From a virus (lineage: Duplodnaviria > Heunggongvirae > Uroviricota > Caudoviricetes): 42,130 nucleotides of DNA. The translations under genes were made by a program, and so were the position numbers. Below the pieces are notes generated by a model that was given only the letters and a program-made list of their open reading frames with translations, did no database searches and was not told the origin of the DNA. Below, piece by piece: positions 16,709 to 42,130 of the stretch; position 1 is the first letter of the stretch; every line of letters starts with the position of its first letter. The DNA is taken from the IMG/VR virus record IMGVR_UViG_2917398303_000001. One strand, 5' to 3'.

Positions 16709-16731
16709 AACCCGCGCAGGCGGGTTTTTTA
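16709..16731 (+). terminator. intrinsic terminator downstream of csp
   Basis: Stem CCCGC / GCGGG with loop GCAG, followed by TTTTTT. Confidence 0.6.
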
Positions 16732-16789
16732 TTATCTGATTTAAATATATTATTAAAATATAAAAACTCTTTGTAAGTAATCAAAACAC

Positions 16790-17397: not shown

Positions 17398-17894
17398 TGT
17401 CGCCATCATTACGCAAGGCTGTTGCAGCTGCTATTGGTGGTGGGGCTGTTGCCATAGCGTCTGTGCTCATCACTGGTCCGAGTGGTGACGATGGTCTGGA
17501 AGGTGTCAGCTACATACCATATAAAGATATCGTTGGCGTATGGACTGTATGTTACGGGCACACCGGAAAAGACATTATGCTCGGTAAAACGTATACCGAA
17601 GCAGAATGCAAAGCCCTCCTGAATAAAGACCTTGCCACTGTCGCCAGACAAATTAACCCGTACATCAAAGTCGATATACCGGAAACAACGCGCGGCGCTC
17701 TTTACTCGTTCGTCTATAACGTGGGCGCAGGCAATTTCAGAACATCTACTCTTCTTCGCAAAATAAACCAGGGCGATATCAAGGGCGCATGTGACCAGCT
17801 ACGTCGCTGGACATACGCTGGCGGTAAGCAATGGAAAGGCCTGATGACTCGTCGTGAGATTGAGCGTGAGGTCTGTTTGTGGGGGCAACAATGA
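17397..17894 (+). CDS. R: SAR endolysin (phage lysozyme, T4-lysozyme-like fold)
   Basis: 165 aa; N-terminal Gly/Ala-rich signal-anchor-release segment ([20 protein letters not shown]) then lysozyme domain; start overlaps the holin stop. Confidence 0.9.
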
Positions 17895-18328
17895 GCAGAG
17901 TCACCGCGATTATCTCCGCTCTGGTTATCTGCATCATCGTCTGTCTGTCATGGGCTGTTAATCATTACCGTGATAACGCCATCACCTACAAAAAGCAGCG
18001 TGATAAGGCCGCATCCATTATCGCTGACATGCAGAAGCGTCAACGTGATGTAGCAGAACTCGACGCCAGATATACAAAGGAGCTTGCTGATGCTAACGCG
18101 ACTATCGAAAGTCTTCGTGCTGATGTTTCTGCTGGGCGTAAGCGCCTGCAAGTCGCCGCCACCTGTGCAAAGTCAACGACCGGAGCCAGCGGCATGGGCG
18201 ATGGAGAAAGCCCAAGACTTACAGCAGATGCTGAACTCAATTATTACCGTCTCCGAAGTGGAATCGACAAGATAACCGCGCAGGTTAACTACCTGCAGGA
18301 GTACATCAGGACGCAATGCCTGAAATAA
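17891..18328 (+). CDS. Rz: i-spanin Rz
   Basis: ATG at 17891; N-terminal TM helix then coiled coil; contains the embedded Rz1 frame. Confidence 0.85.
18084..18275 (+). CDS. Rz1: o-spanin Rz1 (lipoprotein embedded in the +1 frame of Rz)
   Basis: 63-aa ORF entirely within Rz; lipobox LLGVSAC; proline-rich mature region. Confidence 0.75.
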
Positions 18329-18360
18329 TTTTTTTGCAAATCACAAAGTCAATTTAATGA

Positions 18361-18385
18361 GCCTCGCGATGCGGGGCTTTTTTAT
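18361..18385 (+). terminator. intrinsic terminator after the lysis cassette
   Basis: Stem GCCUCGC / GCGGGGC (one G-U pair), loop GAU, then UUUUUUAU. Confidence 0.6.
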
Positions 18386-18530
18386 GTCCGCAGTAAACGC
18401 GCTTCACACGCGCGACTTATGAACACAGAACCTTTCAGGATGACCCTTGAGGATGCCGGTTTGGTGATCGGTGCCTTTCTGTGGGCCGGAATCCTGTGTG
18501 ACAAGGTTCATCACTAAAAGGTGAACACTG

Positions 18531-19822: not shown

Positions 19823-19999
19823 CGCGGGTTTTCGCTATTTATGAAAATTTTCCGGTTTAAGGCGTTTCCGTTCTTCTTCGCCGTAACTTAATGTTTTTAT
19901 TTAAAACACCCTCTGAAAAGAAAGGAAACGACAGGTGCTGAAAACGGGCTTTTTGGCCTCTGTCGTTTCCTTTCTCTGTTTTTGTCCGTGGAATGAACA

Positions 20000-20519
20000 A
20001 TGGAAGTCAACAAAAAGCAGCTGGCTGACATTTTCGGTGCGAGTATCCGTACCATTCAGAACTGGCAGGAGCAGGGAATGCCCGTTCTGCGGGGTGGTGG
20101 CAAGGGTAATGAGGTGCTTTATGACTCTGCCGCCGCCATAAAATGGTATGCCGAAAGGGATGCTGAAATTGAGAACGAAAAGCTGCGCCGGGAGGTTGAA
20201 GAACTGCGACAGGCCAGCGAGACAGATCTCCAGCCAGGCACTATTGAGTACGAACGCCATCGACTTACGCGTGCGCAGGCCGACGCACAGGAGCTGAAGA
20301 ATGCCAGAGACTCCGCTGAAGTGGTGGAAACCGCATTCTGTACTTTCGTGCTGTCGCGGATCGCAGGTGAAATTGCCAGTATTCTCGACGGGATCCCCCT
20401 GTCGGTGCAGCGGCGTTTTCCGGAACTGGAAAACCGACATGTTGATTTCCTGAAACGGGATATCATCAAAGCCATGAACAAAGCAGCCGCGCTGGATGAT
20501 CTGATACCGGGGTTGCTGA

Positions 20520-20545
<26 letters not shown>
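20000..20545 (+). CDS. nu1: terminase small subunit Nu1
   Basis: 181-aa ORF near-identical to lambda Nu1 (MEVNKKQLADIFGASIRTIQNWQEQGMPVLRGGGKGNEVLYDSAAAIKWY...). Confidence 0.97.
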
Positions 20546-24226
<3,681 letters not shown>

Positions 24227-24246
<20 letters not shown>

Positions 24247-25546
24247 TCTCCCGCATATTGCCAGTATGGCCTTTAATGAGCCGCTGATGCTTGAACCCGC
24301 CTATGCGCGGGTTTTCTTTTGTGCGCTTGCAGGCCAGCTTGGGATCAGCCGCCTGACGGATGCGGTGTCCGGCGACAGCCTGACTGCCGGAGAGGCACCC
24401 GCGACGCTGGCGTTATCCGGTGATGATGGCGGGCCACGACAGGCCCGCAGTTATCAGGTCATGAACGGCATCGCCGTGCTGCCGGTGTCCGGCACGCTGG
24501 TCAGCCGGACGCGGGCGCTGCAGCCGTATTCGGGGATGACCGGTTACAACGGCATTATCGCCCGTCTGCAACAGGCTGCCAGCGATCCGATGGTGGACGG
24601 CATTCTGCTCGATATGGACACGCCCGGCGGGATGGTGGCGGGGGCATTTGACTGCGCTGACATCATCGCCCGTGTGCGTGACATAAAACCGGTATGGGCG
24701 CTGGCCAACGACATGAACTGCAGTGCAGGTCAGCTGCTTGCCAGTGCCGCCTCCCGGCGTCTGGTCACGCAGACCGCCCGGACAGGCTCCATCGGCGTCA
24801 TGATGGCTCACAGTAATTACGGTGCAGCCCTGGAGAAACAGGGCGTGGAAATCACGCTGATTTACAGCGGCAGCCATAAGGTGGATGGCAACCCCTACAG
24901 CCATCTTCCGGATGACGTCCGGGAGACACTGCAGTCCCGGATGGACGCAACCCGCCAGATGTTTGCGCAGAAGGTGTCGGCATATACCGGCCTGTCTGTG
25001 CAGGCTGTGCTGGATACCGAGGCTGCAGTGTACAGCGGTCAGGAGGCCATTGATGCCGGACTGGCTGATGAACTTGTTAACAGCACCGATGCGATCACCG
25101 TCATGCGTGATGCACTGGATGCACGTAAATCCCGTCTCTCAGGAGGGCGAATGACCAAAGAGACTCAATCAACAACTGTTTCAGCCACTGCTTCGCAGGC
25201 TGACGTTACTGACGTGATGCCCGCGACGGAGGGCGAAAACGCCAGCGCGGCGCAGCCGGACGTGAATGCGCAGATCACCGCAGCGGTTGCGGCAGAAAAC
25301 AGCCGCATTATGGGGATCCTCAACTGTGAGGAGGCTCACGGACGCGAAGAACAGGCTCGCGTGCTGGCAGAAACCCCCGGTATGACCGTGGAAACGGCCC
25401 GCCGAATTCTGGCCGCAGCACCACAGAGTGCACAGGCGCGCAGTGACACTGCGCTGGATCGTCTGATGCAGGGTGCACCGGCACCGCTGGCTGCAGGTAA
25501 CCCGGCATCTGATGCCGTTAACGATTTGCTGAACACACCAGTGTAA
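24227..25546 (+). CDS. C: head protease / minor capsid protein C
   Basis: 439 aa from GTG at 24227 (the track ORF starts further upstream); matches lambda gpC; overlaps the B 3' end. Confidence 0.92.
24941..25546 (+). CDS. nu3: scaffolding protein Nu3 (in-frame internal start within C)
   Basis: Internal ATG at 24941 (MDATRQMFAQKV...) in the C frame, the same nested arrangement as lambda C/Nu3. Confidence 0.65.
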   Translation: MDATRQMFAQKVSAYTGLSVQAVLDTEAAVYSGQEAIDAGLADELVNSTDAITVMRDALDARKSRLSGGRMTKETQSTTVSATASQADVTDVMPATEGENASAAQPDVNAQITAAVAAENSRIMGILNCEEAHGREEQARVLAETPGMTVETARRILAAAPQSAQARSDTALDRLMQGAPAPLAAGNPASDAVNDLLNTPV

Positions 25547-25555
25547 GGGATGTTT

Positions 25556-25888
25556 ATGACGAGCAAAGAAACCTTTACCCATTACCAGCCGCTGGGCAAC
25601 AGTGACCCGGCTCATACCGCAACCGCGCCCGGCGGATTGAGTGCGAAAGCACCTGCAATGACCCCGCTGATGCTGGACACCTCCACCCGTAAGCTGGTTG
25701 CGTGGGATGGCACCACCGACGGTGCTGCTGTTGGCATTCTTGCGGTTGCTGCTGACCAGACCAGCACCACGCTGACGTTCTACAAGTCCGGCACGTTTCG
25801 TTATGAGGATGTGCTCTGGCCGGAGGCTGCCAGCGACGAGACGAAAAAACGGACCGCGTTTGCCGGAACGGCAATCAGCATCGTTTAA
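25556..25888 (+). CDS. D: head decoration protein D
   Basis: 110 aa ([12 protein letters not shown]...) matching lambda gpD; the second ATG has the better RBS spacing. Confidence 0.95.
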
Positions 25889-25909
25889 CTTTACCCTTCA
25901 TCACTAAAG

Positions 25910-25931
25910 GCCGCCTGTGCGGCTTTTTTTT
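25910..25931 (+). terminator. hairpin plus U-tract between D and E
   Basis: Stem GCCGC / GCGGC with loop CTGT, followed by TTTTTTTT. Confidence 0.5.
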
Positions 25932-25944
25932 ACGGGATTTTTTT

Positions 25945-26970
25945 ATGTCGATGTACACAACCGCCCAGCTGCTGGCGGCAAATGAGCAGAAATTTAAGTT
26001 TGATCCGCTGTTTCTGCGTCTCTTTTTCCGTGAAAGCTATCCCTTCACCACGGAGAAAGTCTATCTCTCACAAATTCCGGGACTGGTAAACATGGCGCTG
26101 TACGTTTCGCCGATTGTTTCCGGTGAGGTTATCCGCTCCCGTGGCGGCTCCACCTCTGAATTTACGCCGGGATATGTCAAGCCGAAGCATGAGGTGAATC
26201 CGCAGATGACCCTGCGTCGCCTGCCGGATGAAGATCCGCAGAATCTGGCGGACCCGGCTTACCGCCGCCGTCGCATCATTATGCAGAACATGCGTGACGA
26301 AGAGCTGGCCATTGCCCAGGTCGAAGAGATGCAGGCAGTTTCTGCCGTGCTTAAGGGCAAATACACCATGACCGGTGAAGCCTTCGATCCGGTTGAGGTG
26401 GATATGGGCCGCAGTGCGGCGAATAACATCACGCAGTCCGGCGGCACGGAGTGGAGCAAGCGTGACAAGTCCACGTATGACCCGACCGACGATATCGAAG
26501 CCTACGCGCTGAACGCCAGCGGTGTGGTGAATATCATCGTGTTCGATCCGAAAGGCTGGGCGCTGTTCCGTTCCTTCAAAGCCGTCAAGGAGAAGCTGGA
26601 TACCCGCCGCGGCTCTAATTCCGAGCTGGAGACAGCGGTAAAAGACCTGGGCGAAGCGGTGTCCTATAAGGGGATGTATGGCGATGTGGCGATCGTCGTG
26701 TATTCCGGACAGTACGTGGAAAACGACGTCAAAAAGAACTTCCTGCCGGACAACACGATGGTGCTGGGGAACACTCAGGCACGCGGTCTGCGCACCTATG
26801 GCTGCATTCAGGATGCGGACGCACAGCGCGAAGGCATTAACGCCTCTGCCCGCTACCCGAAAAACTGGGTGACCACCGGCGATCCGGCGCGTGAGTTCAC
26901 CATGATTCAGTCAGCACCGCTGATGCTGCTGGCTGACCCTGATGCGTTCGTGTCCGTACAACTGGCGTAA
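25945..26970 (+). CDS. E: major capsid protein E
   Basis: 341-aa ORF near-identical to lambda gpE. Confidence 0.97.
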   Translation: MSMYTTAQLLAANEQKFKFDPLFLRLFFRESYPFTTEKVYLSQIPGLVNMALYVSPIVSGEVIRSRGGSTSEFTPGYVKPKHEVNPQMTLRRLPDEDPQNLADPAYRRRRIIMQNMRDEELAIAQVEEMQAVSAVLKGKYTMTGEAFDPVEVDMGRSAANNITQSGGTEWSKRDKSTYDPTDDIEAYALNASGVVNIIVFDPKGWALFRSFKAVKEKLDTRRGSNSELETAVKDLGEAVSYKGMYGDVAIVVYSGQYVENDVKKNFLPDNTMVLGNTQARGLRTYGCIQDADAQREGINASARYPKNWVTTGDPAREFTMIQSAPLMLLADPDAFVSVQLA

Positions 26971-27011
26971 TCGTGGCCCTTCGGGGCCATTTTCTCTCTG
27001 TGGAGGAGTCC

Positions 27012-27410
27012 ATGACGAAAGATGAACTGATTGCCCGTCTCCGGTCGTTGGGTGAGCAACTGAACCGTGATGTCAGCCTGACGGGGACGAAAGAAGAATT
27101 GGCGCTCCGTGTGGCAGAGCTGGAAGAAGAGCTTGATGACACGGATGACACTGCCGGTCAGGACACCCCTCTCAGCCCGGAAAATGTGCTGACCGGGCAT
27201 GAAAATGAGGCTGTATCAGCGCAGCCGGATACCGTGATTCAGGATGCGGCTGATCTGGTCACGGTCGTGGCACTGGTGACGCTGCACACCGATGCACTTC
27301 ACGCCACGCGGGATGAAACTGTGGCATTTGTGCTGCCGGGAACGGCGTTTCGTGTCTCTGCCGGTGTGGCAGCCGAAATGACAGAACGTGGCCTGGCCAG
27401 AATGCAATAA
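27012..27410 (+). CDS. FI: DNA packaging protein FI
   Basis: 132 aa from ATG at 27012 after GGAGGA; matches lambda gpFI. Confidence 0.93.
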   Translation: MTKDELIARLRSLGEQLNRDVSLTGTKEELALRVAELEEELDDTDDTAGQDTPLSPENVLTGHENEAVSAQPDTVIQDAADLVTVVALVTLHTDALHATRDETVAFVLPGTAFRVSAGVAAEMTERGLARMQ

Positions 27411-27421
27411 CGGGAGGCGCT

Positions 27422-27775
27422 GTGGCTGATTTCGATAACCTGTTCGATGCTGCCATTGCCCGCGCCGATGAAACGATACGCGGGTACATGGGAACGTCAG
27501 CCACCATGACATCCGGTGAGCAGTCCGGTGCGGTGATACGTGGTGTTTTTGATGACCCTGAAAATATCAGCTATGCCGGACAGGGCGTGCGCGTTGAAGG
27601 CTCCAGCCCGTCCCTGTTTGTCCGGACTGATGAGGTGCGGCAGCTGCGGCGTGGAGACACGCTGACCATCGGTGAGGAAAACTTCTGGGTAGATCGGGTT
27701 TCGCCGGATGATGGTGGAAGCTGTCATCTCTGGCTTGGACGGGGCGTACCGCCTGCCGTTAACCGTCGCCGCTGA
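27422..27775 (+). CDS. FII: head-tail connector protein FII
   Basis: 117-aa ORF with GTG start; matches lambda gpFII. Confidence 0.93.
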   Translation: MADFDNLFDAAIARADETIRGYMGTSATMTSGEQSGAVIRGVFDDPENISYAGQGVRVEGSSPSLFVRTDEVRQLRRGDTLTIGEENFWVDRVSPDDGGSCHLWLGRGVPPAVNRRR

Positions 27776-27786
27776 AAGGGGGATGT

Positions 27787-28365
27787 ATGGCCATAAAAGG
27801 TCTTGAGCAGGCCGTTGAAAACCTCAGCCGTATCAGCAAAACGGCGGTGCCTGGTGCCGCCGCAATGGCTATTAACCGCGTTGCTTCATCCGCGATATCG
27901 CAGTCGGCGTCACAGGTTGCCCGTGAGACAAAGGTACGCCGGAAACTGGTAAAGGAAAGGGCCAGGCTGAAAAGGGCCACGGTCAAAAATCCGCAGGCCA
28001 GAATCAAAGTTAACCGGGGGGATTTGCCCGTAATCAAGCTGGGTAATGCGCGGGTTGTCCTGTCCCGCCGCAGGCGTCGTAAAAAGGGGCAGCGTTCATC
28101 CCTGAAAGGTGGCGGCAGCGTGCTTGTGGTGGGTAACCGTCGTATTCCCGGCGCGTTTGTTCAGCAACTGAAAAATGGCCGGTGGCATGTCATGCAGCGT
28201 GTGGCCGGGAAAAATCGTTACCCCATTGATGTGGTGAAAATTCCGATGGCGGTGCCGCTTACCACGGCATTTAAACAGAATATTGAACGGATACGGCGTG
28301 AACGTCTTCCGAAAGAGCTGGGCTATGCGCTGCAGCATCAACTGAGAATGGTAATAAAGCGATGA
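27787..28365 (+). CDS. Z: tail completion protein Z
   Basis: 192-aa ORF matching lambda gpZ. Confidence 0.95.
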   Translation: MAIKGLEQAVENLSRISKTAVPGAAAMAINRVASSAISQSASQVARETKVRRKLVKERARLKRATVKNPQARIKVNRGDLPVIKLGNARVVLSRRRRRKKGQRSSLKGGGSVLVVGNRRIPGAFVQQLKNGRWHVMQRVAGKNRYPIDVVKIPMAVPLTTAFKQNIERIRRERLPKELGYALQHQLRMVIKR

Positions 28366-28757
28366 AACATACTGAACTCCGTGCAGCCGTACTGGATGCA
28401 CTGGAGAAGCATGACACCGGGGCGACGCTTTTTGATGGTCGCCCCGCTGTTTTTGATGAGGCGGATTTTCCGGCAATTGCCGTTTATCTCACTGGCGCTG
28501 AATACACGGGCGAAGAGCTGGACAGCGATACCTGGCAGGCTGAGCTGCATATCGAAGTTTTCCTGCCTGCTCAGGTGCCGGATTCAGAGCTGGATTCGTG
28601 GATGGAGTCCCGGATTTATCCGGTGATGAGCGATATTCCGGCACTGTCAGACTTGATCACCAGTATGGTGGCCAGTGGCTATGACTACCGACGCGACGAT
28701 GATGCGGGCCTGTGGAGTTCAGCCGATCTGACTTATGTCATTACCTATGAAATGTGA
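28362..28757 (+). CDS. U: tail terminator protein U
   Basis: 131-aa ORF matching lambda gpU. Confidence 0.95.
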
Positions 28758-28764
28758 GGACGAT

Positions 28765-29505
28765 ATGCCTGTACCAAATCCTACAATGCCGGTGAAAGGG
28801 GCCGGGACCACACTGTGGGTTTATAAGGGGAACGGTGACCCTTATGCGAACCCGCTTTCAGACGTTGACTGGTCGCGTCTGGCAAAAGTTAAAGACCTGA
28901 CGCCCGGCGAACTGACCGCTGAGTCCTATGACGACAGTTATCTCGATGATGAAGATGCGGACTGGACTGCGACCGGGCAGGGGCAGAAATCAGCCGGAGA
29001 TACCAGCTTCACGCTGGCGTGGATGCCCGGAGAGCAGGGGCAGCAGGCGCTGCTGGCGTGGTTTAATGAAGGTGATACCCGTGCCTATAAAATCCGCTTC
29101 CCGAACGGCACGGTCGATGTGTTCCGTGGCTGGGTCAGCAGTATCGGTAAAGCGGTGACGGCGAAGGAAGTGATCACCCGCACGGTGAAGGTCACCAATG
29201 TGGGACGCCCGTCGATGGCAGAAGATCGCAGCACGGTAACAGCGGCCACCGGCATGACGGTAACGCCAGCCAGTGCTTCCGTAGTGAAAGGGCAGAGCAC
29301 CACGCTGACCGTGGCATTCCAGCCGGAAGGCGCAACCGACAAGAGCTTCCGTGCGGTGTCTGCGGATAAAACAAAAGCCACCGTGTCGGTCAGTGGTATG
29401 ACCATCACCGTGAACGGCGTTGCTGCAGGCAAGGTCAACATTCCGGTGGTATCCGGTAATGGTGAGTTTGCTGCGGTTGCAGAAATCACCGTCACCGCCA
29501 GTTAA
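28765..29505 (+). CDS. V: major tail tube protein V
   Basis: 246 aa from ATG at 28765 ([14 protein letters not shown]...); matches lambda gpV, including the C-terminal Ig-like domain. Confidence 0.95.
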
Positions 29506-29520
29506 TCCGGAGAGTCAGCG

Positions 29521-29943
29521 ATGTTCCTGAAAACCGAATCATTTGAACATAACGGCGTGACCGTCACGCTTTCTGAACTGTCAGCCCTGCAGCGTATTGA
29601 GCATCTCGCCCTGATGAAACGGCAGGCAGAACTGGCGGAGTCAGACAGCAACCGGAAGTTTACTGTGGAAGACGCCATCAGAACCGGCGCTTTTGTGGTG
29701 GCGATGTCCCTGTGGCATAACCATCCGAAGAAGACGCAGATGCCGTCCATGAATGAAGCCGTTAAACAGATTGAGCAGGAAGTGCTTACCACCTGGCCTA
29801 CAGAGGCAATTTCTCATGCTGAAAACGTGGTGTACCGGCTGTCCGGTATGTATGAGTTTGTGGTGAATAATGCCCCTGAACAGACAGAGGACGCCGGGCC
29901 TGCAGAGCCTGTTTCTGCGGGAAAGTGTTCGACGGTGAGCTGA
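29521..29943 (+). CDS. G: tail assembly chaperone G
   Basis: 140-aa ORF matching lambda gpG. Confidence 0.95.
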   Translation: MFLKTESFEHNGVTVTLSELSALQRIEHLALMKRQAELAESDSNRKFTVEDAIRTGAFVVAMSLWHNHPKKTQMPSMNEAVKQIEQEVLTTWPTEAISHAENVVYRLSGMYEFVVNNAPEQTEDAGPAEPVSAGKCSTVS

Positions 29944-30359
29944 GTTTTGCCCTGAAACTGGCGCGAGAGATGGGGCGACCCGACTGGCGCGCCATGCTTG
30001 CCGGGATGTCATCCACGGAGTATGCCGACTGGCACCGCTTTTACAGTACCCATTATTTTCATGATGTTCTGCTGGATATGCACTTTTCCGGGCTGACATA
30101 CACCGTGCTCAGCCTGTTTTTCAGCGATCCGGATATGCATCCGCTGGATTTCAGTCTGCTGAACCGGCGCGAGGCTGACGAAGAGCCTGAAGATGATGTG
30201 CTGATGCAGAAAGCGGCAGGGCTTGCCGGAGGCGTCCGCTTTGACCCGGACGGGAATGAAGTTATCCCCGCATCCCCGGATATGGCGGGCATGACGGAGG
30301 ATGACGTAATGCTGATGACAGTATCAGAAGGGATCGCAGGAGGAGTCCGGTATGGCTGA
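29521..30359 (+). CDS. T: tail assembly chaperone G-T fusion via -1 programmed ribosomal frameshift
   Basis: Slippery heptamer GGGAAAG at 29919-29925 near the end of G; T frame open from 29925 to 30359, as in lambda G/GT. Confidence 0.8.
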
Positions 30360-32912
30360 ACCGGTAGGCGATCTGGTCGTTGATTTAAGTCTGGATGCGG
30401 CCAGATTTGACGAGCAGATGGCCAGAGTCAGGCGTCATTTTTCCGGTACGGAAAGTGATGCGAAAAAACAGCGGCAGTCGTTGAACAGTCGCTGAGCCGA
30501 CAGGCGCTGGCTGCACAGAAAGCGGGGATTTCCGTCGGGCAGTATAAAGCCGCCATGCGTATGCTGCCTGCACAGTTCACCGACGTGGCCACGCAGCTTG
30601 CAGGCGGGCAAAGTCCGTGGCTGATCCTGCTGCAACAGGGTGGTCAGGTGAAGGACTCCTTCGGCGGGATGATCCCCATGTTCAGGGGGCTTGCCGGTGC
30701 GATCACCCTGCCGATGGTCGGGGCCACCTCGCTGGCGGTGGCGACAGGTGCGCTGGCGTATGCCTGGTATCAGGGCAACTCAACCCTGTCCGATTTCAAC
30801 AAAACGCTGGTCCTTTCCGGTAATCAGTCGGGTCTGACGGCAGATCGTATGCTGGTCCTGTCCAGAGCCGGGCAGGCCGCAGGGCTGACGTTTAACCAGA
30901 CCAGCGAGTCACTCAGCGCACTGGTTAAGGCGGGGGTAAGCGGCGAGGCTCAGATTGCGTCCATCAGCCAGAGTGTGGCGCGTTTCTCCTCTGCATCCGG
31001 TGTGGAGGTGGACAAGGTCGCTGAAGCCTTCGGGAAGCTGACCACTGACCCGACGTCGGGGCTGACAGCGATGGCGCGCCAGTTCCATAACGTGACGGCG
31101 GAGCAGATTGCGTATGTTGCTCAGTTGCAGCGTTCCGGCGATGAAGCCGGGGCATTGCAGGCGGCGAACGAGGCCGCAACGAAAGGGTTTGATGACCAGA
31201 CCCGCCGCCTGAAAGAGAACATGGGCACGCTGGAAACCTGGGCAGGCAGGACAGCACGGGCATTCAAATCCATGTGGGATGCTGTGCTGGATATTGGTCG
31301 TCCTGATACCGCTCAGGAGATGCTGATTAAGGCAGAGGCTGCGTTTAAGAAAGCGGACGACATCTGGAATCTGCGCAAGGATGATTATTTTGTTAACGAT
31401 GAAGCGCGGGCACGTTACTGGGATGATCGTGAAAAGGCCCGTCTTGCGCTTGAAGCCGCGAGAAAGAAGGCTGAACAGCAGAGTCAACAGGACAAAAATG
31501 CGCAGCAGCAGAGCGATACCGAAGCGTCACGGCTGAAATATACCGAAGAGGCGCAGAAGGCTTACGAACGGCTGCAGACGCCGCTGGAGAAATATACCGC
31601 CCGTCAGGAAGAACTGAATAAGGCACTGAAAGACGGAAAAATCCTGCAGGCAGATTACAACACGCTGATGGCAGCGGCGAAAAAGGATTATGAAGCGACG
31701 CTGAAAAAGCCGAAACAGTCCGGCGTGAAGGTGTCTGCGGGCGATCGTCAGGAAGACAGTGCTCATGCTGCCCTGCTGACGCTTCAGGCAGAACTCCGGA
31801 CACTGGAGAAGCATGCCGGAGCGAATGAGAAAATCAGCCAGCAGCGCCGGGATTTGTGGAAGGCAGAAAGTCAGTTCGCGGTACTGGAGGAGGCGGCACA
31901 ACGTCGCCAGCTGTCCGCACAGGAGAAATCCCTGCTGGCGCATAAAGATGAGACGCTGGAGTACAAACGCCAGCTGGCTGCACTTGGTGACAAGGTTACG
32001 TATCAGGAGCGCCTGAACGCGCTGGCGCAGCAGGCGGATAAATTCGCACAGCAGCAACGGGCAAAACGGGCCGCCATTGAGGCGAAAAACCGGGGGCTGA
32101 CTGACCGGCAGGCAGCGCGGGACGCCACGGAACAGCGCCTGAAGGAGCAGTATGGCGATAATCCTCTGGCGCTGAATAACGTCATGTCAGAGCAGAAAAA
32201 GACCTGGGCAACTGAAGACCAGCTTCGTGGGAGCTGGATGGCTGGCCTGAAGTCCGGCTGGAGCGAGTGGAAAGAGAGTGCCACAGACAGTATGTCGCAG
32301 GTTAAAAGTGCTGCTACGCAGACCTTTGATGGTATTGCGCAGAATATGGCGGCGATGCTGACCGGCAGTGAACAGAACTGGCGCAGCTTCACCCGTTCCG
32401 TGCTGTCCATGATGACAGAAATTCTGCTTAAGCAGGCAATGGTGGGAATTGTCGGGAGTATCGGCAGCGCCATTGGCGGTGCTGCCGGTGGTGGCGCATC
32501 AGCGTCAGGCGGTACAGCCATTCAGGCTGCTGCGGCAAAATTCCATTTTGCGACTGGGGGATTTACGGGAACCGGCGGCAAATATGAGCCTGCGGGGATT
32601 GTTCACCGTGGTGAATTTGTCTTCACGAAGGAGGCAACCAGCCGGATTGGCGTGGGGAATCTCTACCGGCTGATGCGCGGCTATGCCACCGGTGGTTATG
32701 TCGGTACACCGGGCAGCCTGGCGGACAGCCGGTCGCAAGCGTCCGGGAAGTTTGAGCAGAATAACCATGTGGTGATTAATAATGACGGCACGAACGGTCA
32801 GATAGGTCCGGCTGCTCTGAAGGCGGTGTATGACATGGCCCGCAAGGGTGCCCGTGATGAAATTCAGACACAGATGCGTGATGGTGGCCTGTTCTCCGGA
32901 GGTGGACGATGA
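30352..32912 (+). pseudogene. H: tail tape measure protein H, reading frame interrupted near codon 40 (apparent 1-nt deletion in an A-run)
   Basis: ATG at 30352 overlaps the T stop and opens a 47-codon ORF ending at 30495; the rest of H continues in the -1 frame as the 785-aa ORF 30555..32912; the frames switch at the run of six A at 30463-30468. Confidence 0.75.
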
Positions 32913-33238
32913 AAACCTTCCGCTGGAAAGTGAAACCGGGTATGGATGTGGCTTCGGCTCCTTCCGTCAGGGAGGTGCGCTTTGGTGATGGTTACTCCCA
33001 GCGCGCGCCTGCCGGGCTGAATGCCAACCTGAAAACGTACAGCGTGACACTTTCTGTTTCCCGTGAGGAAGCCACGGCGCTGGAGTCATTTCTGGCAGAG
33101 CACGGGGGCTGGAAAGCCTTTCTGTGGACACCGCCTTATGGCTACCGGCAGATAAAGGTGACCTGCGCAAAGTGGACTGTGCGGGTCAGTATGTTGCGCG
33201 CTGAGTTCAGCGCAGAGTTTAAACAGGTGGTGAACTGA
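32909..33238 (+). CDS. M: tail tip protein M
   Basis: 109-aa ORF matching lambda gpM. Confidence 0.95.
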   Translation: MKTFRWKVKPGMDVASAPSVREVRFGDGYSQRAPAGLNANLKTYSVTLSVSREEATALESFLAEHGGWKAFLWTPPYGYRQIKVTCAKWTVRVSMLRAEFSAEFKQVVN

Positions 33239-33936
33239 TGCAGGATATCCGGCAGGAAACACTGAATGAATGCACCCGTGCGGAGCAGTCGGCCAGCGTG
33301 GTGCTCTGGGAAATCGATCTGACAGAGGTCGGTGGAGAACGTTATTTTTTCTGTAATGAGCAGAACGAAAAAGGTGAGCCGGTCACCTGGCAGGGGCGGC
33401 AGTATCAGGCGTATCCCATTCAGGGAAGCGGTTTTGAACTGAATGGCAAAGGCACCAGTACGCGCCCCACGCTGACGGTTTCTAACCTGTACGGTATGGT
33501 CACCGGTATGGCGGAGGATTTGCAGAGTCTGGTCGGCGGAACGGTGGTCCGGCGTAAGGTTTACGCCCGTTTTCTGGATGCGGTGAACTTCGTCAACGGA
33601 AACAGTGACGCCGATCCGGAGCAGGAGGTGATCAGCCGCTGGCGCATCGAGCAGTGCAGCGAACTGAGCGCGGTCAGTGCCTCTTTTGTACTGTCCACGC
33701 CGACGGAAACGGATGGTGCTGTTTTCCCGGGGCGCATCATGCTGGCCAACACCTGCACCTGGACCTATCGCGGTGATGAGTGCGGTTATAACGGTCCGGC
33801 TGTCGCGGATGAATATGACCAGCCGACGTCCGATATCACGAAGGATAAATGCAGCAAATGCCTGAGTGGTTGTAAGTTTCGCAATAACGTCGGCAACTTT
33901 GGCGGCTTCCTTTCCATTAACAAACTTTCGCAGTAA
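33238..33936 (+). CDS. L: tail tip protein L
   Basis: 232-aa ORF matching lambda gpL. Confidence 0.95.
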   Translation: MQDIRQETLNECTRAEQSASVVLWEIDLTEVGGERYFFCNEQNEKGEPVTWQGRQYQAYPIQGSGFELNGKGTSTRPTLTVSNLYGMVTGMAEDLQSLVGGTVVRRKVYARFLDAVNFVNGNSDADPEQEVISRWRIEQCSELSAVSASFVLSTPTETDGAVFPGRIMLANTCTWTYRGDECGYNGPAVADEYDQPTSDITKDKCSKCLSGCKFRNNVGNFGGFLSINKLSQ

Positions 33937-33941
33937 ATCCC

Positions 33942-34685
33942 ATGACACAGACAGAATCAGCGATTCTGGCGCACGCCCGACGATGTGCGCCAGCGGAGTC
34001 GTGCGGCTTCGTGGTGAGAACGCCGGAGGGGGAAAGATATTTTCCCTGCGTGAATATCTCCGGTGAGCCGGAGGATTATTTCCGGATGTCGCCGGAGGAC
34101 TGGCTGCAGGCAGAAATGCGGGGTGAGATTGTGGCGCTGGTCCACAGCCACCCCGGTGGTCTGCCCTGGCTGAGTGAGGCCGACCGGCGGCTGCAGGTGC
34201 AGAGTGATTTGCCGTGGTGGCTGGTCTGCCGGGGGGCGATTCATAAGTTCCGCTGTGTGCCGCATCTCACCGGGCGGCTCTTTGAGCACGGGGTGACGGA
34301 CTGTTACACGCTGTTCCGGGATGCTTACCATCTGGCGGGGATTGAGATGCCGGATTTTCATCGTGAGGATGACTGGTGGCGTAACGGTCAGAATCTCTAT
34401 CTGGATAATCTGGAGGCCACAGGGCTGTATCAGGTGCCGTTGTCAGCGGCGCAGCCGGGCGATGTGCTGCTGTGCTGTTTTGGTTCATCTGTGCCGAATC
34501 ATGCCGCCATTTACTGTGGTGACGGCGAGCTGCTGCACCATATTCCTGAACAACTGAGCAAACGAGAGAGGTATACCGACAAATGGCAGCGACGCACACA
34601 CTCCCTCTGGCGTCACCGGGCATGGCACGCATCTGCCTTTACGGGGATTTACAACGATTTGGCCGCCGCATCGACCTTCGTGTGA
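33942..34685 (+). CDS. K: tail tip assembly protein K (JAB/MPN plus NlpC/P60-like)
   Basis: 247-aa ORF starting 6 nt after L; contains the JAMM motif (ALVHSHPGG); the classical lambda annotation starts at the internal Met at 34086. Confidence 0.9.
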   Translation: MTQTESAILAHARRCAPAESCGFVVRTPEGERYFPCVNISGEPEDYFRMSPEDWLQAEMRGEIVALVHSHPGGLPWLSEADRRLQVQSDLPWWLVCRGAIHKFRCVPHLTGRLFEHGVTDCYTLFRDAYHLAGIEMPDFHREDDWWRNGQNLYLDNLEATGLYQVPLSAAQPGDVLLCCFGSSVPNHAAIYCGDGELLHHIPEQLSKRERYTDKWQRRTHSLWRHRAWHASAFTGIYNDLAAASTFV

Positions 34686-35254
34686 AAACGGGGGCCGAAG
34701 CCATCCGGGCGCTGGCCACACAGCTCCCTGCGTTTCGTCAGAAACTGAGCGACGGCTGGTATCAGGTGCGTATTGCCGGGCAGGATGTCAGCACGTCCGG
34801 ATTAACGGCGCAGTTACATGAGGCTCTGCCTGATGGCGCTGTGATTCATATTGTTCCCAGAGTCGCCGGGGCCAAGTCAGGTGGTGTATTCCAGATTGTC
34901 CTGGGAGCAGCCGCCATTGCCGGATCATTCTTTACCGCCGGAGCCACCCTTGCAGCATGGGGGGCTGCCATTGGTGCCGGTGGTATGACCGGCATTCTGT
35001 TTTCTCTCGGTGCCAGTATGGTGCTCGGCGGTGTGGCTCAGATGCTGGCACCGAAAGCCAGAACTCCCCGCACACAGACAACGGATAACGGTAAGCAGAA
35101 CACCTATTTCTCCTCACTGGATAACATGGTTGCCCAGGGCAATGTTATGCCTGTTCTGTATGGTGAAATGCGCGTGGGGTCACGTGTGGTATCTCAGGAG
35201 ATCAGCACGGCAGATGAAGGGGACGGTGGTCAGGTTGTGGTGATTGGTCGATGA
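34583..35254 (+). CDS. I: tail tip assembly protein I
   Basis: 223-aa ORF matching lambda gpI; overlaps the K 3' end by 103 nt as in lambda. Confidence 0.95.
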   Translation: MAATHTLPLASPGMARICLYGDLQRFGRRIDLRVKTGAEAIRALATQLPAFRQKLSDGWYQVRIAGQDVSTSGLTAQLHEALPDGAVIHIVPRVAGAKSGGVFQIVLGAAAIAGSFFTAGATLAAWGAAIGAGGMTGILFSLGASMVLGGVAQMLAPKARTPRTQTTDNGKQNTYFSSLDNMVAQGNVMPVLYGEMRVGSRVVSQEISTADEGDGGQVVVIGR

Positions 35255-35314
35255 TGCAAAATATTTTATGTGAAACCGCCTGCGGGCGGTTTTGTCGTTT
35301 ATGGAGCATGACGA

Positions 35315-38300
35315 ATGGGTAAAGGCAGCAGTAAGGGACATACCCCGCGCGAAGCAAAGGACAATCTGAAGTCCACGCAGTTGCTGAGTGTGATCGATGC
35401 CATCAGCGAAGGGCCGATTGAAGGTCCGGTGGATGGATTAAAAAGCGTGCTGCTGAACAGTACACCGGTGCTGGACAGTGAGGGGAATACCAACATCTCC
35501 GGTGTCACGGTGGTATTCCGGGCAGGTGAGCAGGAACAGACACAGCCGGAGGGATTTGAATCCTCCGGATCCGAGACGGTGCTGGGTACGGAAGTGAAAT
35601 ACGACACGCCGATCACCCGGACCATCACGTCTGCAAACATCGACCGTCTGCGCTTTACCTTCGGTGTGCAGGCACTGGTGGAAACCACCTCAAAGGGTGA
35701 CAGGAATCCGTCGGAAGTCCGCCTGCTGGTTCAGATCCAGCGTAATGGTGGCTGGGTGACGGAAAAAGACATCACCATTAAGGGCAAAACCACCTCGCAG
35801 TATCTGGCCTCGGTGGTGGTGGGTAACCTGCCGCCGCGCCCGTTCAATATACGGATGCGCAGGATGACGCCGGACAGCACCACAGACCAGCTGCAGAACA
35901 AAACGCTCTGGTCGTCATACACCGAAATCATCGATGTGAAACAGTGCTACCCGAACACGGCACTGGTCGGCGTGCAGGTGGATTCGGAGCAGTTCGGCAG
36001 CCAGCAGGTGAGCCGTAATTATCATCTGCGCGGGCGCATTCTGCAGGTGCCGTCGAACTATAACCCGCAGACGCGGCAATACAGCGGTATCTGGGACGGA
36101 ACGTTTAAGCCAGCATACAGCAACAACATGGCATGGTGCCTGTGGGATATGCTGACCCATCCGCGCTACGGCATGGGGAAACGTCTTGGTGCGGCGGATG
36201 TGGACAAATGGGCGCTGTATGTCATCGGCCAGCATTGCGATCAGTCGGTGCCGGACGGTTTTGGCGGCACGGAGCCGCGCATCACCTGTAATGCGTACCT
36301 GACCACACAGCGTAAGGCGTGGGATGTTCTCAGTGATTTCTGCTCGGCGATGCGCTGTATGCCGGTATGGAACGGGCAGACGCTGACGTTCGTGCAGGAC
36401 CGACCGTCGGATAAGGTGTGGACCTATAACCGCAGTAATGTGGTGATGCCGGATGATGGCGCGCCGTTCCGCTACAGCTTCAGCGCCCTGAAGGACCGCC
36501 ATAATGCCGTTGAGGTGAACTGGATTGACCCGAATAACGGCTGGGAGACGGCGACAGAGCTTGTGGAGGACACGCAGGCCATTCTCCGTTACGGTCGTAA
36601 CGTCACGAAGATGGATGCTTTTGGCTGTACCAGCCGGGGGCAGGCACACCGCGCCGGGCTGTGGCTGATTAAAACGGAGCTGCTGGAAACGCAGACCGTG
36701 GACTTCAGCGTGGGTGCAGAAGGGCTTCGCCATGTACCGGGCGATGTCATTGAAATCTGTGATGATGACTATGCGGGTATCAGCATCGGCGGGCGCGTGC
36801 TGGCGGTGAACAGCCAGACCCGGACGCTGACGCTCGACCGTGAAATCACGCTGCCATCCTCCGGCACCACGCTGATAAGCCTGGTTGACGGACAGGGGAA
36901 TCCGGTCAGCGTGGAGGTCCAGTCCGTCACCGACGGCGTGAAGGTGAAAGTGAGCCGGGTTCCTGACGGCGTTGCCGAGTACAGCGTGTGGGGGCTGAAG
37001 CTGCCGACGCTGCGCCAGCGCCTGTTCCGCTGTGTGAGTATCCGTGAGAACGATGACGGTACGTATGCCATCACTGCCGTGCAGCATGTGCCGGAGAAAG
37101 AAGCCATCGTGGATAACGGGGCGCACTTTGACGGTGACCAGAGCGGCACGGTGAATGGTGTCACGCCGCCAGCGGTGCAGCACCTGACCGCAGAAGTCAC
37201 CGCAGACAGCGGGGAATATCAGGTGCTGGCGCGCTGGGACACGCCGAAGGTGGTGAAGGGCGTGAGCTTCCTGCTTCGCCTGACCGTGGCTGCGGATGAT
37301 GGCAGTGAACGGCTGGTCAGCACGGCCCGGACGACGGAAACCACATACCGCTTCAGGCAACTGGCGCTGGGAAATTACAGGCTGGCAGTCCGGGCGGCAA
37401 ATGCCTGGGGGCAGCAGGGCGATCCGGCATCGGTATCGTTCCGGATTGCCGCACCGGCAGCGCCGTCGCGGATTGAGCTGACGCCGGGCTATTTTCAGAT
37501 AACCGCCACGCCCCATCTTGCCGTTTATGATCCGACGGTACAGTTTGAGTTCTGGTTCTCGGAAAAGCGGATTACCGATATCAGGAAGGTTGAAACCAGC
37601 GCGCGTTATCTTGGCACGGCGCTGTACTGGATAGCCGCCAGTATCAATATCAAGCCGGGCCATGATTATTATTTTTATATCCGCAGTGTGAATACTGTTG
37701 GCAAATCGGCATTCGTGGAGGCTGTCGGTCGGGCGAGCGATGATGCGGAAGGTTACCTGGATTTTTTCAAAGGCCAGATAACCGAATCTCATCTCGGCAA
37801 GGAGCTGCTGGAAAAAGTCGAGCTGACGGAGGATAACGCCAGCAAACTGGAGGAGTTTTCGAAAGAGTGGAAAGACGCCAACGATAAATGGAATGCCATG
37901 TGGGGCGTCAAAATTGAGCAGACCGAAGACGGCAGGCATTATGTCGCGGGGCTTGGCCTCAGCATGGAGGATACGGAGGAAGGTAAACTGAGCCAGTTCC
38001 TGGTTGCCGCTAACCGTATCGCGTTTATTGACCCGGCAAACGGGAATGAAACGCCGATGTTTGTGGCGCAGGGCAACCAGATATTCATGAACGAGGTGTT
38101 CCTGAAGTATCTGACGGCGCCAACCATTACCAGCGGCGGTAATCCTCCGGTATTTTCCCTGACACCGGACGGGCGGCTGACGGCGAAAAATGCCGATATC
38201 AGCGGTAACGTGAACGCGAACTCCGGGACGCTCAATAATGTCACGATTAACCAGAACTGTCGGATTATGGGAAAACTGTCTGCCAACCAGATTGAAGGTG

Positions 38301-38713
38301 ATATTGTCAAAACGGTGGGAAAAGCCTTTCCGAGAAATGGCAGTTATGCCAGCGGTACAATAACGGTCACTGTGTACGATGACCAGGCTTTTGACCGTCA
38401 GATAGTAATCCCACCCGTTCTGTTTCGCGGTGGTAAGCATGAAAACTTCAACAGCAACAACCAACAGTCATACTGGTATTCGACCTGTAAGCTGCAGGTA
38501 CTGAAGAACGGACAGGAAATCTTTCAGCAACCCGCGACGGATGTCAGCAGGGTATTTTCATCCGTCATTGATATGCCAGCGGGACACGGCCATGTCACCC
38601 TGACTTTCAATGTTTCTTCATATGGTGCTCATAACTGGACGCCAACGACCAGTATCAGCGACCTTCTTGTTGTCGTGATGAAGAAATCAACAGCCGGTAT
38701 CAGTATCAGTTGA
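35315..38713 (+). CDS. J: central tail fibre / host-specificity protein J
   Basis: 1132-aa ORF; N-terminal about 980 aa match lambda gpJ; the C-terminal about 150 aa look divergent from lambda. Confidence 0.95.
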
Positions 38714-38732
38714 ATTTTATAACCCAAATACG

Positions 38733-38758
38733 GGCGCCAGAAATGGCGCCTTTTTTAT
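38733..38758 (+). terminator. intrinsic terminator after J
   Basis: Stem GGCGCC / GGCGCC with loop AGAAAT, followed by TTTTTTATTT. Confidence 0.7.
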
Positions 38759-38771
38759 TTGTGGAGTGAAT

Positions 38772-40834
38772 ATGGCAGTACAGATTTCAGGCGTGCTGAA
38801 AGACGGTGCAGGAAAACCAATACAGAACTGCACTATTCAGCTCAAAGCAAAGCGTAACAGCACCACGGTACTGGTGAACACGGTGGCCTCTGAAAATCCG
38901 GATGAAGCCGGGCGTACAGCATGGATGTTGAGTACGGTCAGTACAGCGTCATTCTGTTGGTGGAGGGATTCCCGCCGTCACATGCCGGGACCATTACCGT
39001 CTATGAAGGTTCCAGGCCAGGTACGCTGAATGATTTTCTCGGTGCCATGACGGAAGATGATGTCATGCCTGAGGCATTGCGCCGTTTTGAGGAAATATTG
39101 GAAGAAACGGCACGAAACGCTGAAGCTGCCTCTCAGAGCGCAGCGGCGGCAAAGAAATCCGAAACTGCAGCGGCATCATCGAAGAACGCGGCGAAAACGT
39201 CAGAGACGAATTCAGCCAACAGCGAGAAAGCTGCTGCATCTTCTAAAACAGCATCAGAAACAGCAGCAACAGCAGCATCACTTTCAGAGGCTAATGCCCG
39301 GGCGTCAGAGGAGAAATCTGCAGAAAATGCTGACGCAGCACGTCGTGAAGCATTATTAGCGACAACTGCAGCTGAAACTGCCACCACAAAAGCGCAGGAG
39401 GCCGCAGCAGACGCAACAAAGGCCGGGCAGAAAAAGGATGAAGCCGTCGCGGCGGCGACACGTTCGGAAGCGGCGGCAGACCGCGCAGAAGCTGCAGCGG
39501 AAGTGACTGTAAAACCATATGTGAATATAGTTCCGCCGCTGCCTGATGTCTGGATTCCGTTTAATGATTCACTGGATATGATTACGGGCTTTTCGCCGTC
39601 ATATAAAAGGATTGTTATTGGCGATGATGAAATAACAATGCCTGGCGACAAGATTGTAAAGTTTAAACGCGCATCAAAAGCAACTTACATTAATAAATCT
39701 GGTGTGCTGACAGAGGCTGCCATTGACGAGCCACGATTTGAATGTGATGGCCTGCTTATTGAGGGGCAAAGAACGAACTTCTTCCCGAACAGTACAGACC
39801 CTTCGAAGTGGAATAAGTCAACTTCACTGGACGTTACAGAAACAGGCACAGATAGTTTCGGTTTTAATTATGGCCGGTTTGTCGTACAGGATTCGATTGT
39901 TGGCACAAGTAAAGCGCATACCATTATAGGGCTGTATTCAAGTACCGGAGGGGTTGATACTTCAGGTGACGAAAAGTATGTAACTATATCCTGTCGGGTA
40001 AAAAGTGAAGTTGATAATATCGCCGTTCGTATTTTATTTGAACATTATGATGGGGAGGTAAGGACATCAATAGGAGCAGCAAGCCTGAACCTTACCACCC
40101 GCATAATTAGCAAGACAGGCCAGACAAGCCGTGTTACAGCAAGGTCTGTTAAGGAAGATGCAACTGGCTGGATATTTTTTGAGGCTACATTAAAAGCAGA
40201 TACAACAGAAAATACGGTTGGTGGTTTCGTCCAGTATTCTCCGGATACAGGGCAGATGGTGGCATCAGGGGATTGTCTCGATGTAACCACTCCACAGATT
40301 GAGGCTGGTACAGGCGCATCATCTTTTATTGTTACGGGGGCGGCACCGGTAACGCGGGCAAGCGATATAGTTACAGTCCCAATTAAGAATAATCTTTATA
40401 ATCTTCCTTTTACGGTTCTTTGTGAGGTACATAAGAACTGGTATAAAACGCCAAATGCAGCACCGCGTGTTTTTGATACCGGCGGTCATCAAACCGGAGC
40501 GGCTATTATTCTTGGCTTCGGTTCTTCAGCAGATTACGACGGATTTCCTTATTGCGATATTGGTGGGTCTAACAGACGGATAAACGAAAATGCATCACTT
40601 GAAAAAATGGTTATGGGGATGCGTGTAAAGTCTGATCAGTCTACATGCGCAGTAAGTAACGGGCGTATATCCAGCGAAACAAAAACCACATGGTCATATA
40701 TTCAGAACTCCGCAATTATCCGTATTGGAGGCCAGACTACAGCCGGTTTACGCCATTTATTTGGTCATGTCAGGAATTTCAGAATATGGCATAAAGAATT
40801 AACTGATGCGCAAATGGGGGAGAGTATTAAATGA
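38772..40834 (+). pseudogene. stf: side tail fibre Stf: lambda-type N-terminal anchor, Ala-rich coiled coil, non-lambda C-terminal domain; apparent frameshift after codon 46
   Basis: ATG at 38772 opens MAVQISGVLKDGAGKPIQNCTIQLKAKRNSTTVLVNTVASENPDEAGR, then the frame is lost; the continuation MDVEYGQYSVIL... is in the -1 frame (ORF 38921..40834). Confidence 0.7.
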
Positions 40835-41112
40835 AAGATTTAACACTCAAATTTTCCGACAGGGCCGACTTTTCGGCCTTTATGGATAGCACTGGCTATT
40901 ATGATGACGAGTCGATGCAGGATGATATTCTCATTGACGTGATAGGTGACGTGTATAAAGAAACCGGAGAACTGACTGACGATGGCGAGCCGGTATGTGT
41001 TAAGGAAGACGGATATTTTGTAAACGTGCGCATCATTAATGATGTGAAAACACCGTCAATATTCGATGAATACGCGGTTGTTGTTGAGCATCAACTTCGT
41101 GGCTGGATGTGA
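40831..41112 (+). CDS. hypothetical acidic protein (93 aa) translationally coupled to stf
   Basis: ATG overlaps the stf stop (ATGA) with a GGGGGAGAG RBS; strongly acidic; occupies the Tfa position but is half the usual Tfa size. Confidence 0.45.
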   Translation: MKDLTLKFSDRADFSAFMDSTGYYDDESMQDDILIDVIGDVYKETGELTDDGEPVCVKEDGYFVNVRIINDVKTPSIFDEYAVVVEHQLRGWM

Positions 41113-41121
41113 GGGAGACAA

Positions 41122-41823
41122 ATGGCTACATCGACAGTAATTCCAGGAGATATCACTACGCTAAAGGGAGATGTCAGTAAAGCTAAGGAAGATATTTCCT
41201 CAATTAGCGGAAAAGTATCAACGCTTCAGACTGATATGGACAGTGCAAAGCAGGATATCAGTACCAGATACACAAAAACTGAAGTGGATAATAAGCTGAA
41301 AAATAAAGTAGAAGTGAATGATCTGGAAAGCGGTCGTTATGGCGGGGATTTTTATCCACTGACAGGTCGTGAAGCGTTTTATTTATGGAATTTGGCTACG
41401 ACTACAGCTGCGGCAAACCTTTATCTTAATCCTGACCCCGCAATTTCGTCTGTATTGCGGTCAACATCGTCTATCCGCTATAAGCATTCAGTAGAGACGA
41501 TAGATTCAGAGCACGCCGATCTCATTCTCAAGATGCGCCCTGTATGGTACAGGTCGCAATGCGAAAATGACAGGCGTGATTGGGGGTTCTATGGATTGAT
41601 TGCCGAGGAAGTAGGAGAAATTGCCCCTCAGTTTGTACACTGGCGACCAGCTAACGAAGATGATGCTCCTGAAGCTATTTCCAGCAATGGCCTTGTTGCC
41701 GAAGGTGTAATGTACGAACGTCTGGTTGTTCCACTGATTCACCATATCCAGAAACTGACTGAAAGAGTTGATGAACTTGAGTCAGAATTAAAGCTGTTAT
41801 CAACTTCCCGAAGCGATATCTGA
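41122..41823 (+). CDS. fibre-like protein with C-terminal intramolecular-chaperone (peptidase S74-like) domain
   Basis: 233-aa ORF with GAGGGAGA RBS; N-terminal coiled coil; C-terminal region (SSIRYKHSVETI ... WGFYGLIAEEVGEIAPQFV ... GLVAEGVMYERLVVPLIHHIQKLTERVDELE) resembles the S74 auto-cleaving chaperone domain of tail fibres and tailspikes. Confidence 0.5.
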   Translation: MATSTVIPGDITTLKGDVSKAKEDISSISGKVSTLQTDMDSAKQDISTRYTKTEVDNKLKNKVEVNDLESGRYGGDFYPLTGREAFYLWNLATTTAAANLYLNPDPAISSVLRSTSSIRYKHSVETIDSEHADLILKMRPVWYRSQCENDRRDWGFYGLIAEEVGEIAPQFVHWRPANEDDAPEAISSNGLVAEGVMYERLVVPLIHHIQKLTERVDELESELKLLSTSRSDI

Positions 41824-41836
41824 TAAAGGAGGAGTA

Positions 41837-42130
41837 ATGGATATAAGCCCCTTACTTCATGCACTTTGTGCTGTGGCTGCGCAGATACTGGTTGGTCTTT
41901 TTACCGGAAACTGGGTTTACGGAGCGATAGCCGGCTGTACGTTCTTCATTGCGCGTGAACACACCCAGGCAGAATATCGCTGGATTGAAATGTTCGGGCA
42001 TGGCAAGCGGATTAACATGCCGTGGTGGGGCGGTTTTGATCCACGCGCGTGGGATGTAGCAAGCCTGATGGATTTTGCTGTGCCGGTGGTGGCGTGTCTG
42101 CTGGTCTGGGTATTTATCCGTTCAACATAA
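41837..42130 (+). CDS. small integral membrane protein (97 aa)
   Basis: Strong RBS AAGGAGGAG; hydrophobic segments at both ends (LLHALCAVAAQILVGLF ; FAVPVVACLLVWVFI); function unknown; its stop is the last base of the window. Confidence 0.45.
   Translation: MDISPLLHALCAVAAQILVGLFTGNWVYGAIAGCTFFIAREHTQAEYRWIEMFGHGKRINMPWWGGFDPRAWDVASLMDFAVPVVACLLVWVFIRST

Follow-up and report, generated by a model that had tools for sequence, protein, structure and literature searches.

The tape-measure gene H lies between T (tail chaperone) and the tail-tip gene M in a late operon of lambda type. It was studied as part of what we call the window, that is, the whole stretch of 42,130 nucleotides that was analysed; the features discussed here are collected in Table 1. 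The start of H (...GGT ATG GCT GAA...) overlaps the stop codon of T (TGA, 30357–30359), and its first frame encodes MAEPVGDLVVDLSLDAARFDEQMARVRRHFSGTESDAKKQRQSLNSR before it is terminated. The remainder of the gene is open in the −1 frame up to the stop codon at 32910–32912. The two frames share only a short stretch, and the run of six A (A6) falls within it. The initial annotation had described an ATG overlapping the T stop, 47 codons up to a TGA, a −1 frame open from before 30470 to 32912 and a switch of frames at the A6 run. Our coordinates agree with this layout and place the beginning of the open −1 frame at 30459.

We aligned the locus with lambda (J02459), and found that A6 against A7 (GCG AAA AAA ACA) was the sole difference at the A-run. 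The sequence AAA-AAA-ACA, which the initial annotation had given for lambda H, is therefore correct. A tblastn search with lambda H as the query placed residues 1–39 in frame 1 and residues 37–854 in frame 3, with the junction at the A-run. When one A was inserted, an uninterrupted ORF of 853 aa was restored, which differs from lambda H by 16 substitutions (98% identity). Thus, the earlier diagnosis of a lambda-type H split through the loss of one A from A7 was right. Because A6 against A7 is a fixed sequence difference, a chance test is not applicable to it.

The Pfam families TMP_2 (PF06791) and Tape_meas_lam_C (PF09718) were recorded on the 785-aa ORF. A gpH gene is expected to occupy a single uninterrupted frame; in the record it is split at the A6 tract, and this split is probably a sequencing artefact. 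No protein was called across H by NCBI, which fits a pseudogene annotation. Upstream of H, the GGGAAAG heptamer is the real programmed −1 site of the operon, with the role established for lambda G-T.

Table 1. Features of the H locus and sites of one-base differences in the window.
Feature	Position	Strand	Remarks
GGGAAAG, lambda G/G-T −1 programmed frameshift heptamer	29919–29925	+	Intact; outside the H defect
T reading frame (tail assembly chaperone, expressed as G-T fusion)	29925–30359	+	Intact; stop overlaps the H start
5' fragment of tape-measure gene H	30352–30495	+	ATG, 47 codons, TGA (30493–30495); residues 1–39 100% identical to lambda H
Overlap in which both H frames are open	30459–30492	+	34 nt; bounded by TGA 30456–30458 (−1 frame) and TGA 30493–30495 (0 frame)
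A6 tract	30463–30468	+	A7 in lambda and nearly all homologues; apparent one-base deletion site
Remainder of H, −1 frame	30459–32912	+	Pfam TMP_2 and Tape_meas_lam_C; first in-frame ATG at 30555, giving a 785-aa ORF
T8 run, D-E intergenic terminator	25924–25931	+	T7 in lambda and 27/29 IMG/VR relatives
Side tail fibre gene (stf homologue)	38772–40834	+	Private TT to T at ~38914–38915 splits the gene; no NCBI protein called
CC/C indel	42019–42020	+	NCBI assembly and a relative read CC; Logan SRR6148338 assembly of the same strain reads C

Integrity of the prophage

The window starts with proA, which is followed by thrW (tRNA-Thr, 1369–1444) and then by an integrase gene. This order indicates a lambdoid prophage with thrW as its integration site. 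Past the right end of the window, a 53-bp sequence repeats the 3' end of thrW and looks like attR. The exact match of the integrase protein was found in prophages of other strains.

The late region (19823–38247) is collinear with lambda 13–18437 at 96.7% nucleotide identity and with four gaps only, and its genes stand in the lambda order (nu1-A-W-B-C-D-E-FI-FII-Z-U-V-G-T-H-M-L-K-I-J). The comparison with 20 late proteins of lambda and with some 33 early ones from a related prophage of E. coli SF-468 showed full-length genes in one frame, with H as the lone exception in this set; about 53 genes besides H are thus intact. We found no nonsense mutations, IS insertions or larger deletions in the prophage, and every lesion was a one-base homopolymer change. 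No abnormal gene sizes were detected in the flanking core genes over 10 kb upstream and 6.6 kb downstream.

The H gene of the window carries 27 private substitutions, of which 22 are synonymous and five are non-synonymous. Relative to its nearest relative, 51 synonymous and 12 non-synonymous codons were counted. This pattern shows purifying selection on H up to the present, with no indication that it has been relaxed. Considering this signal and the otherwise undamaged set of prophage genes, a real A6 event would have to be extremely recent. The possibility that H is an old pseudogene was rejected on the balance of its private substitutions.

Occurrence of the six-A allele

We searched for the A6 allele in public sequence data. 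Among complete E. coli records, an 80-nt query on the run found it in 2 of 3497 (4164 places), the others aligning with a one-base gap; as these counts were taken by identity band, they would miss a record that has A6 together with another substitution close by, since it would fall in the 95–99% band. The two records are ESBL 15 and ET474. In both of them the annotation marks many of the phage genes nearby as ‘frameshifted’, a sign of error-prone assemblies. The allele was present in none of 81 phage records (A7 or another sequence in 81), in one IMG/VR contig against A7 in at least 120, and in none of the GTDB species representative genomes. An artefact implies that the allele is absent from homologues sequenced otherwise, and these counts are as such an artefact would have it. 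We also sought isolates with the same prophage and A7 through exact matches to the 785-aa H fragment and to J, and nothing was found beyond the NCBI and Logan assemblies of this one strain.

The allele nevertheless recurs. It is carried by an IMG/VR contig whose H differs in background (42 mismatches in 2204 nt and no gaps elsewhere), and this contig counts against an artefact. The 47-aa peptide that A6 creates was found on 313 contigs in a large protein collection, where some sources call it a tail tape measure protein. In the ten longest places shown, the phage genes were shredded in all. Thus, A6 recurs in public data at the H site, and every example whose surroundings were inspected lies in an error-prone assembly. 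Because the fragment occurs on so many contigs and the inspected assemblies are error-prone, the A-run of H appears to generate false pseudogenes repeatedly in lambdoid prophages. In the phage records PhiR49_1 and 1H12, H is also annotated in two pieces. They have no bearing on a shared mechanism, since their frameshifts lie elsewhere (in a G-run and at an inserted T) and both have A7 at this site.

Sequencing platform and other one-base anomalies

By exact protein matches, that of proA among them, the window was placed on contig PDIB01000028.1 of GCA_004745285.1, to which it is 100% identical over the overlap, with window position 1 at contig position 42094. PDIB00000000 belongs to the Escherichia cryptic clade II strain E4694. 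The data behind this draft were single-end Ion Torrent reads of 35–400 bp at about 50×, and MIRA and SPAdes were used for the assembly (PMC6639607). The draft is thus the product of a flow-based platform (Ion Torrent or 454), as a homopolymer artefact would require. In a second assembly, that of run SRR6148338, Logan contig 9 agrees with window positions 29090–42130 without mismatches and with one gap, and it has A6 too. SRR6148338 looks like the run behind SRX3260358 (strain E4694). The agreement of the NCBI and Logan assemblies on A6 implies that most reads or k-mers carry A6. However, the two assemblies were presumably built from the same reads, and hence would have a systematic base-calling error in common.

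On the Ion Torrent PGM, short homopolymers are over-called and long ones are under-called, so that deletions dominate with rising length (PMC3623719). The under-calling of long homopolymers is strongest for adenine runs. The same platform produces ‘high frequency indel’ errors at about one per kb of reference, which are mostly single-base and result in frameshifts in assemblies; the strand-asymmetric ones occur mainly in 2–3-mers, and most of these errors are not reproduced between runs (PMC3623719). A change from A7 to A6 is the direction expected of an Ion Torrent error (PMC3623719, PMC12046094). The change in H fits the textbook Ion Torrent case, and the TT to T and CC/C differences fit the ‘high frequency indel’ class.

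When the same Listeria strain is assembled with SPAdes from Ion Torrent and from Illumina data, the two assemblies differ on average at 14.5 of the 1748 core loci. If about 0.8% of genes are affected, about 0.5 false frameshifts are expected among the approximately 55 genes of the window, and one or two would be unremarkable. We also tested other 7-base runs within genes. The frame was kept at A7 68–74 in proA, T7 2236 in int, T7 4451 in dam, T7 7438, and A7 22239 in the terminase gene. Thus, Ion Torrent did not fail at every long run.

The window was then audited for private indels by alignment with a panel of relatives, all in the same orientation, which covered the 20–42 kb part well. In this part exactly three private indels were found (T7 to T8 at 25924, A7 to A6 in H, and TT to T at ~38915), and all of them are single-base homopolymer changes. 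With the last one, the stf homologue consists of an N-terminal piece of 47 aa and an ORF of 637 aa. A gap-free match to its single-T allele was sought in E. coli and found in 0 of 2232 records (8070 places), and at the same site the IMG/VR contigs have T in one and TT in at least 120. The CC/C difference at 42020 between the NCBI and Logan assemblies shows directly that one-base indels in the E4694 data are assembler-dependent. Both marks of an artefact, i.e., further private one-base homopolymer indels and disagreement between assemblers, were therefore found in these data.

Origin of the split and comparison with known systems

We hold with good confidence that the split H is a consensus sequencing error, that is, a homopolymer under-call, and not biology. 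The true prophage would have A7 and an intact tape-measure protein of 853 aa. Ion Torrent base-calling would shorten A7 in most reads and so lead to A6 in both E4694 assemblies. The A6 call would then cause the apparent frameshift, and this in turn the pseudogene annotation by NCBI. We infer that the reads mis-call the A-run of H. This explanation is favoured because the draft is from Ion Torrent, because the allele is nearly absent from homologues and because private one-base anomalies lie nearby. Per lambdoid H copy, A6 is truly present in at most about 2 of 4164, and both cases resemble errors. The probability that Ion Torrent mis-calls a given A7 in the consensus plausibly lies in the per-cent range, judging from the Listeria comparison and the window itself. 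Between the two there is a ratio of one to two orders of magnitude, in favour of the artefact.

It may also be explained that replication slippage really deleted one A from A7 very recently and inactivated H, which we regard as rather unlikely. The presence of A6 in both E4694 assemblies and the correct calling of most other long homopolymers in the window count against an artefact and suit a real deletion. Homopolymers are generally true mutational hot spots, A7 tracts among them are real hot spots for slippage during replication, and natural prophages commonly have inactivated tail genes; the stf gene of lambda PaPa has a real one-base frameshift. However, A6 is essentially absent from high-quality data, as the two E. 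coli places at most are both in error-ridden assemblies, and exactly such a one-base deletion is the typical error of Ion Torrent. All the lesions are of the one-base homopolymer kind, without the nonsense mutations, insertions or larger losses noted above, and another such indel (CC/C) demonstrably depends on the assembler. Purifying selection on H up to the present would also leave room for an extremely recent event only. If the deletion were real, the newly defective prophage would make heads but no functional tails, and the stf change might be a second real lesion; such a loss of a tail gene would be ordinary and very recent.

Finally, A6 could be real and full-length wild-type H could still be made at a low level by slippage, as a leaky natural frameshift. 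The ribosome might shift by −1 on GCG-AAA-AAA-C, where tRNA-Lys would leave one AAA and pair with another and ACA would be read next, or RNA polymerase might add an extra A. Either route would give exactly the wild-type ...DAKKTAAVV..., with the junction peptide SDAKKTAAVVEQ. Few copies of H are needed per tail, so the phage might then stay partly viable with weak tail building. The A-run lies within the sole 34-nt stretch where both frames are open, a −1 shift works only there, and such a shift would reproduce the wild-type H protein. Lysine codons in A-runs are shift-prone in E. coli, for example at the dnaX site A AAA AAG.

However, the two-frame layout is not conserved, and homologues are almost without exception in a single frame with A7. 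The heptamer G AAA AAA departs from the form X XXY YYZ, and its end is AAA-C in place of the efficient AAG. In the zero frame (G-AAA-AAA-C) the first position is G, which allows perfect re-pairing for the A-site tRNA only. The flanks of the A-run are identical to those of single-frame wild-type lambda, which means that nothing has evolved there to promote shifting. A tract of six A is also below the 8–9 nt or so that are usual for efficient transcriptional slippage. A programmed site would have a stimulatory structure 5–9 nt downstream or an SD-like element upstream, and neither applies to the A-run. The hairpin predicted directly after it was rejected as a frameshift stimulator, since it has no spacer and its stability does not exceed that of shuffled sequence (z = −0.91; 37 of 200 shuffles reach it). 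We consider this explanation to be very improbable.

Thus, among the three outcomes that the initial annotation had left open, the homopolymer sequencing error is the one favoured by the Ion Torrent draft, the rarity of the allele and the nearby one-base anomalies, while much lower probability falls to a defective or cryptic prophage and to slippage-dependent expression. The split of H is most likely a sequencing artefact, and it is ordinary under either reading, artefact or real deletion. Caution is required here, as the frameshifts in H and stf are no ground for scoring this prophage as defective or cryptic.

Several known systems can be compared with the H locus. Transcriptional slippage at poly(A) tracts rescues frameshifted genes in insect endosymbionts, IS elements and Thermus dnaX. 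There too a frameshift in an A-run can be corrected by an extra A in the mRNA, but those tracts are typically at least 9 nt long, whereas the H tract is A6 and unconserved. The lambda G/G-T frameshift (G GGA AAG) likewise changes to the −1 frame, in a tail-assembly gene of the same operon directly upstream. It differs in that G-T is conserved in lambdoid phages with a canonical heptamer, while the change in H comes without conservation, canonical heptamer or significant stimulator. The stf frameshift of lambda PaPa (orf-401/orf-314) is a verified laboratory mutation. It is a one-base deletion that splits the side tail fibre gene, as at ~38915 here; however, its position is another one, and the allele here is private and comes from an Ion Torrent draft.

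The under-call artefacts of Ion Torrent, 454 and Nanopore data, with their false pseudogenes, share with H the one-base deletion in a long A-run, the private allele and the nearby anomalies. The difference is that most other long runs in the window are correctly called. Lambda gpH itself (853 aa; J02459 10542–13103) has A7 at codons 38–40, whereas the record has A6 and hence a piece of 47 aa plus a remainder. In its position between T and M, its overlap with the T stop and its Pfam families the H of the window is like lambda gpH, to which it is 98% identical once a single A is added.

One-base length differences outside the tape-measure gene

A private one-base deletion was found to split the side tail fibre gene (stf) homologue as well: the window reads GGGCG-T-ACAGC, whereas lambda and E. 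coli relatives have TT. The single-T version had a gap-free match in none of 2232 E. coli records, and among IMG/VR contigs a single T occurred at this site in 1, against TT in at least 120. No protein was called at the locus by NCBI. We also found that lom is absent between J and stf in the window; it is present at this position in lambda and E. coli JNE21-009.

Near the right end of the window, two assemblies of the same strain were compared. CC was found in the NCBI assembly, as well as in a relative, and a single C in L129, a contig of the Logan assembly of run SRR6148338. This one-base indel is assembler-dependent; the overlapping open reading frame encodes 97 aa with CC and 73 aa in the Logan assembly. 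A further difference lies in the terminator-like run between D and E, which is T8 in the window and T7 in lambda and 27 of the 29 IMG/VR relatives.

Coordinates of the features discussed (window unless stated)
Feature	Sequence	Position	Detail
GTTGA insertion	window	6899-6903	
Two-gene cassette	window	7255-8108	minus strand
thrW integration site, adjoining proA	window	1369-1450	
T8 run	window	25924-25931	
J end	window	38713	
stf start	window	38772	
stf homologue	window	38772-40834	frameshift at ~38914-38915
97-aa ORF	window	41837-42130	
CC/C site	window	42019-42020	L129 12930
53-bp repeat	L140, reaching past the right end	20988-21040	~4.2 kb past window end
A6 in H	L008	560-598	
H frameshift	L001 (PhiR49_1)	~3367-3400	
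H frameshift	L002 (1H12)	~3306	

Early region and integration site

A two-gene cassette, possibly a toxin-antitoxin system or a defence moron, adjoins the cI-like repressor gene. It encodes a SocA/Panacea-domain protein and a 127-aa hypothetical protein, and the E. coli SF-468 prophage has it too. Between kil and the next gene, GTTGA forms a 5-bp tandem insertion relative to five of seven relatives. The prophage lies at thrW; beyond the window, the tRNA 3' end recurs as a 53-bp repeat that is likely to be attR. The genes for an FMN oxidoreductase, a LysR regulator and an EthD-family protein, located between the tail fibre genes and this repeat, are not phage-like in appearance and may represent either cargo or another island, a second one.

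A6 and split H genes in other sequences

The IMG/VR contig L008 (IMGVR_UViG_2913112809_000002) also carries the A6 tract, in another lambdoid H allele with 42 mismatches over 2204 nt and no other gaps. Here A6 may be either an error that arose independently or a genuine recurrence. In public protein collections, the 47-aa peptide that results when the tract is read as A6 was found on 313 contigs, with variants on about 100 more, and some sources name it tail tape measure protein. This peptide looks like a recurring database artefact, because the surrounding assemblies were error-prone wherever they were inspected.

H is likewise annotated as two pieces in the deposited lambdoid phage genomes PhiR49_1 and 1H12. 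These divisions are caused by frameshifts elsewhere in the gene, at a G-run in one and an inserted T in the other, and both phages carry A7 at the site studied here.
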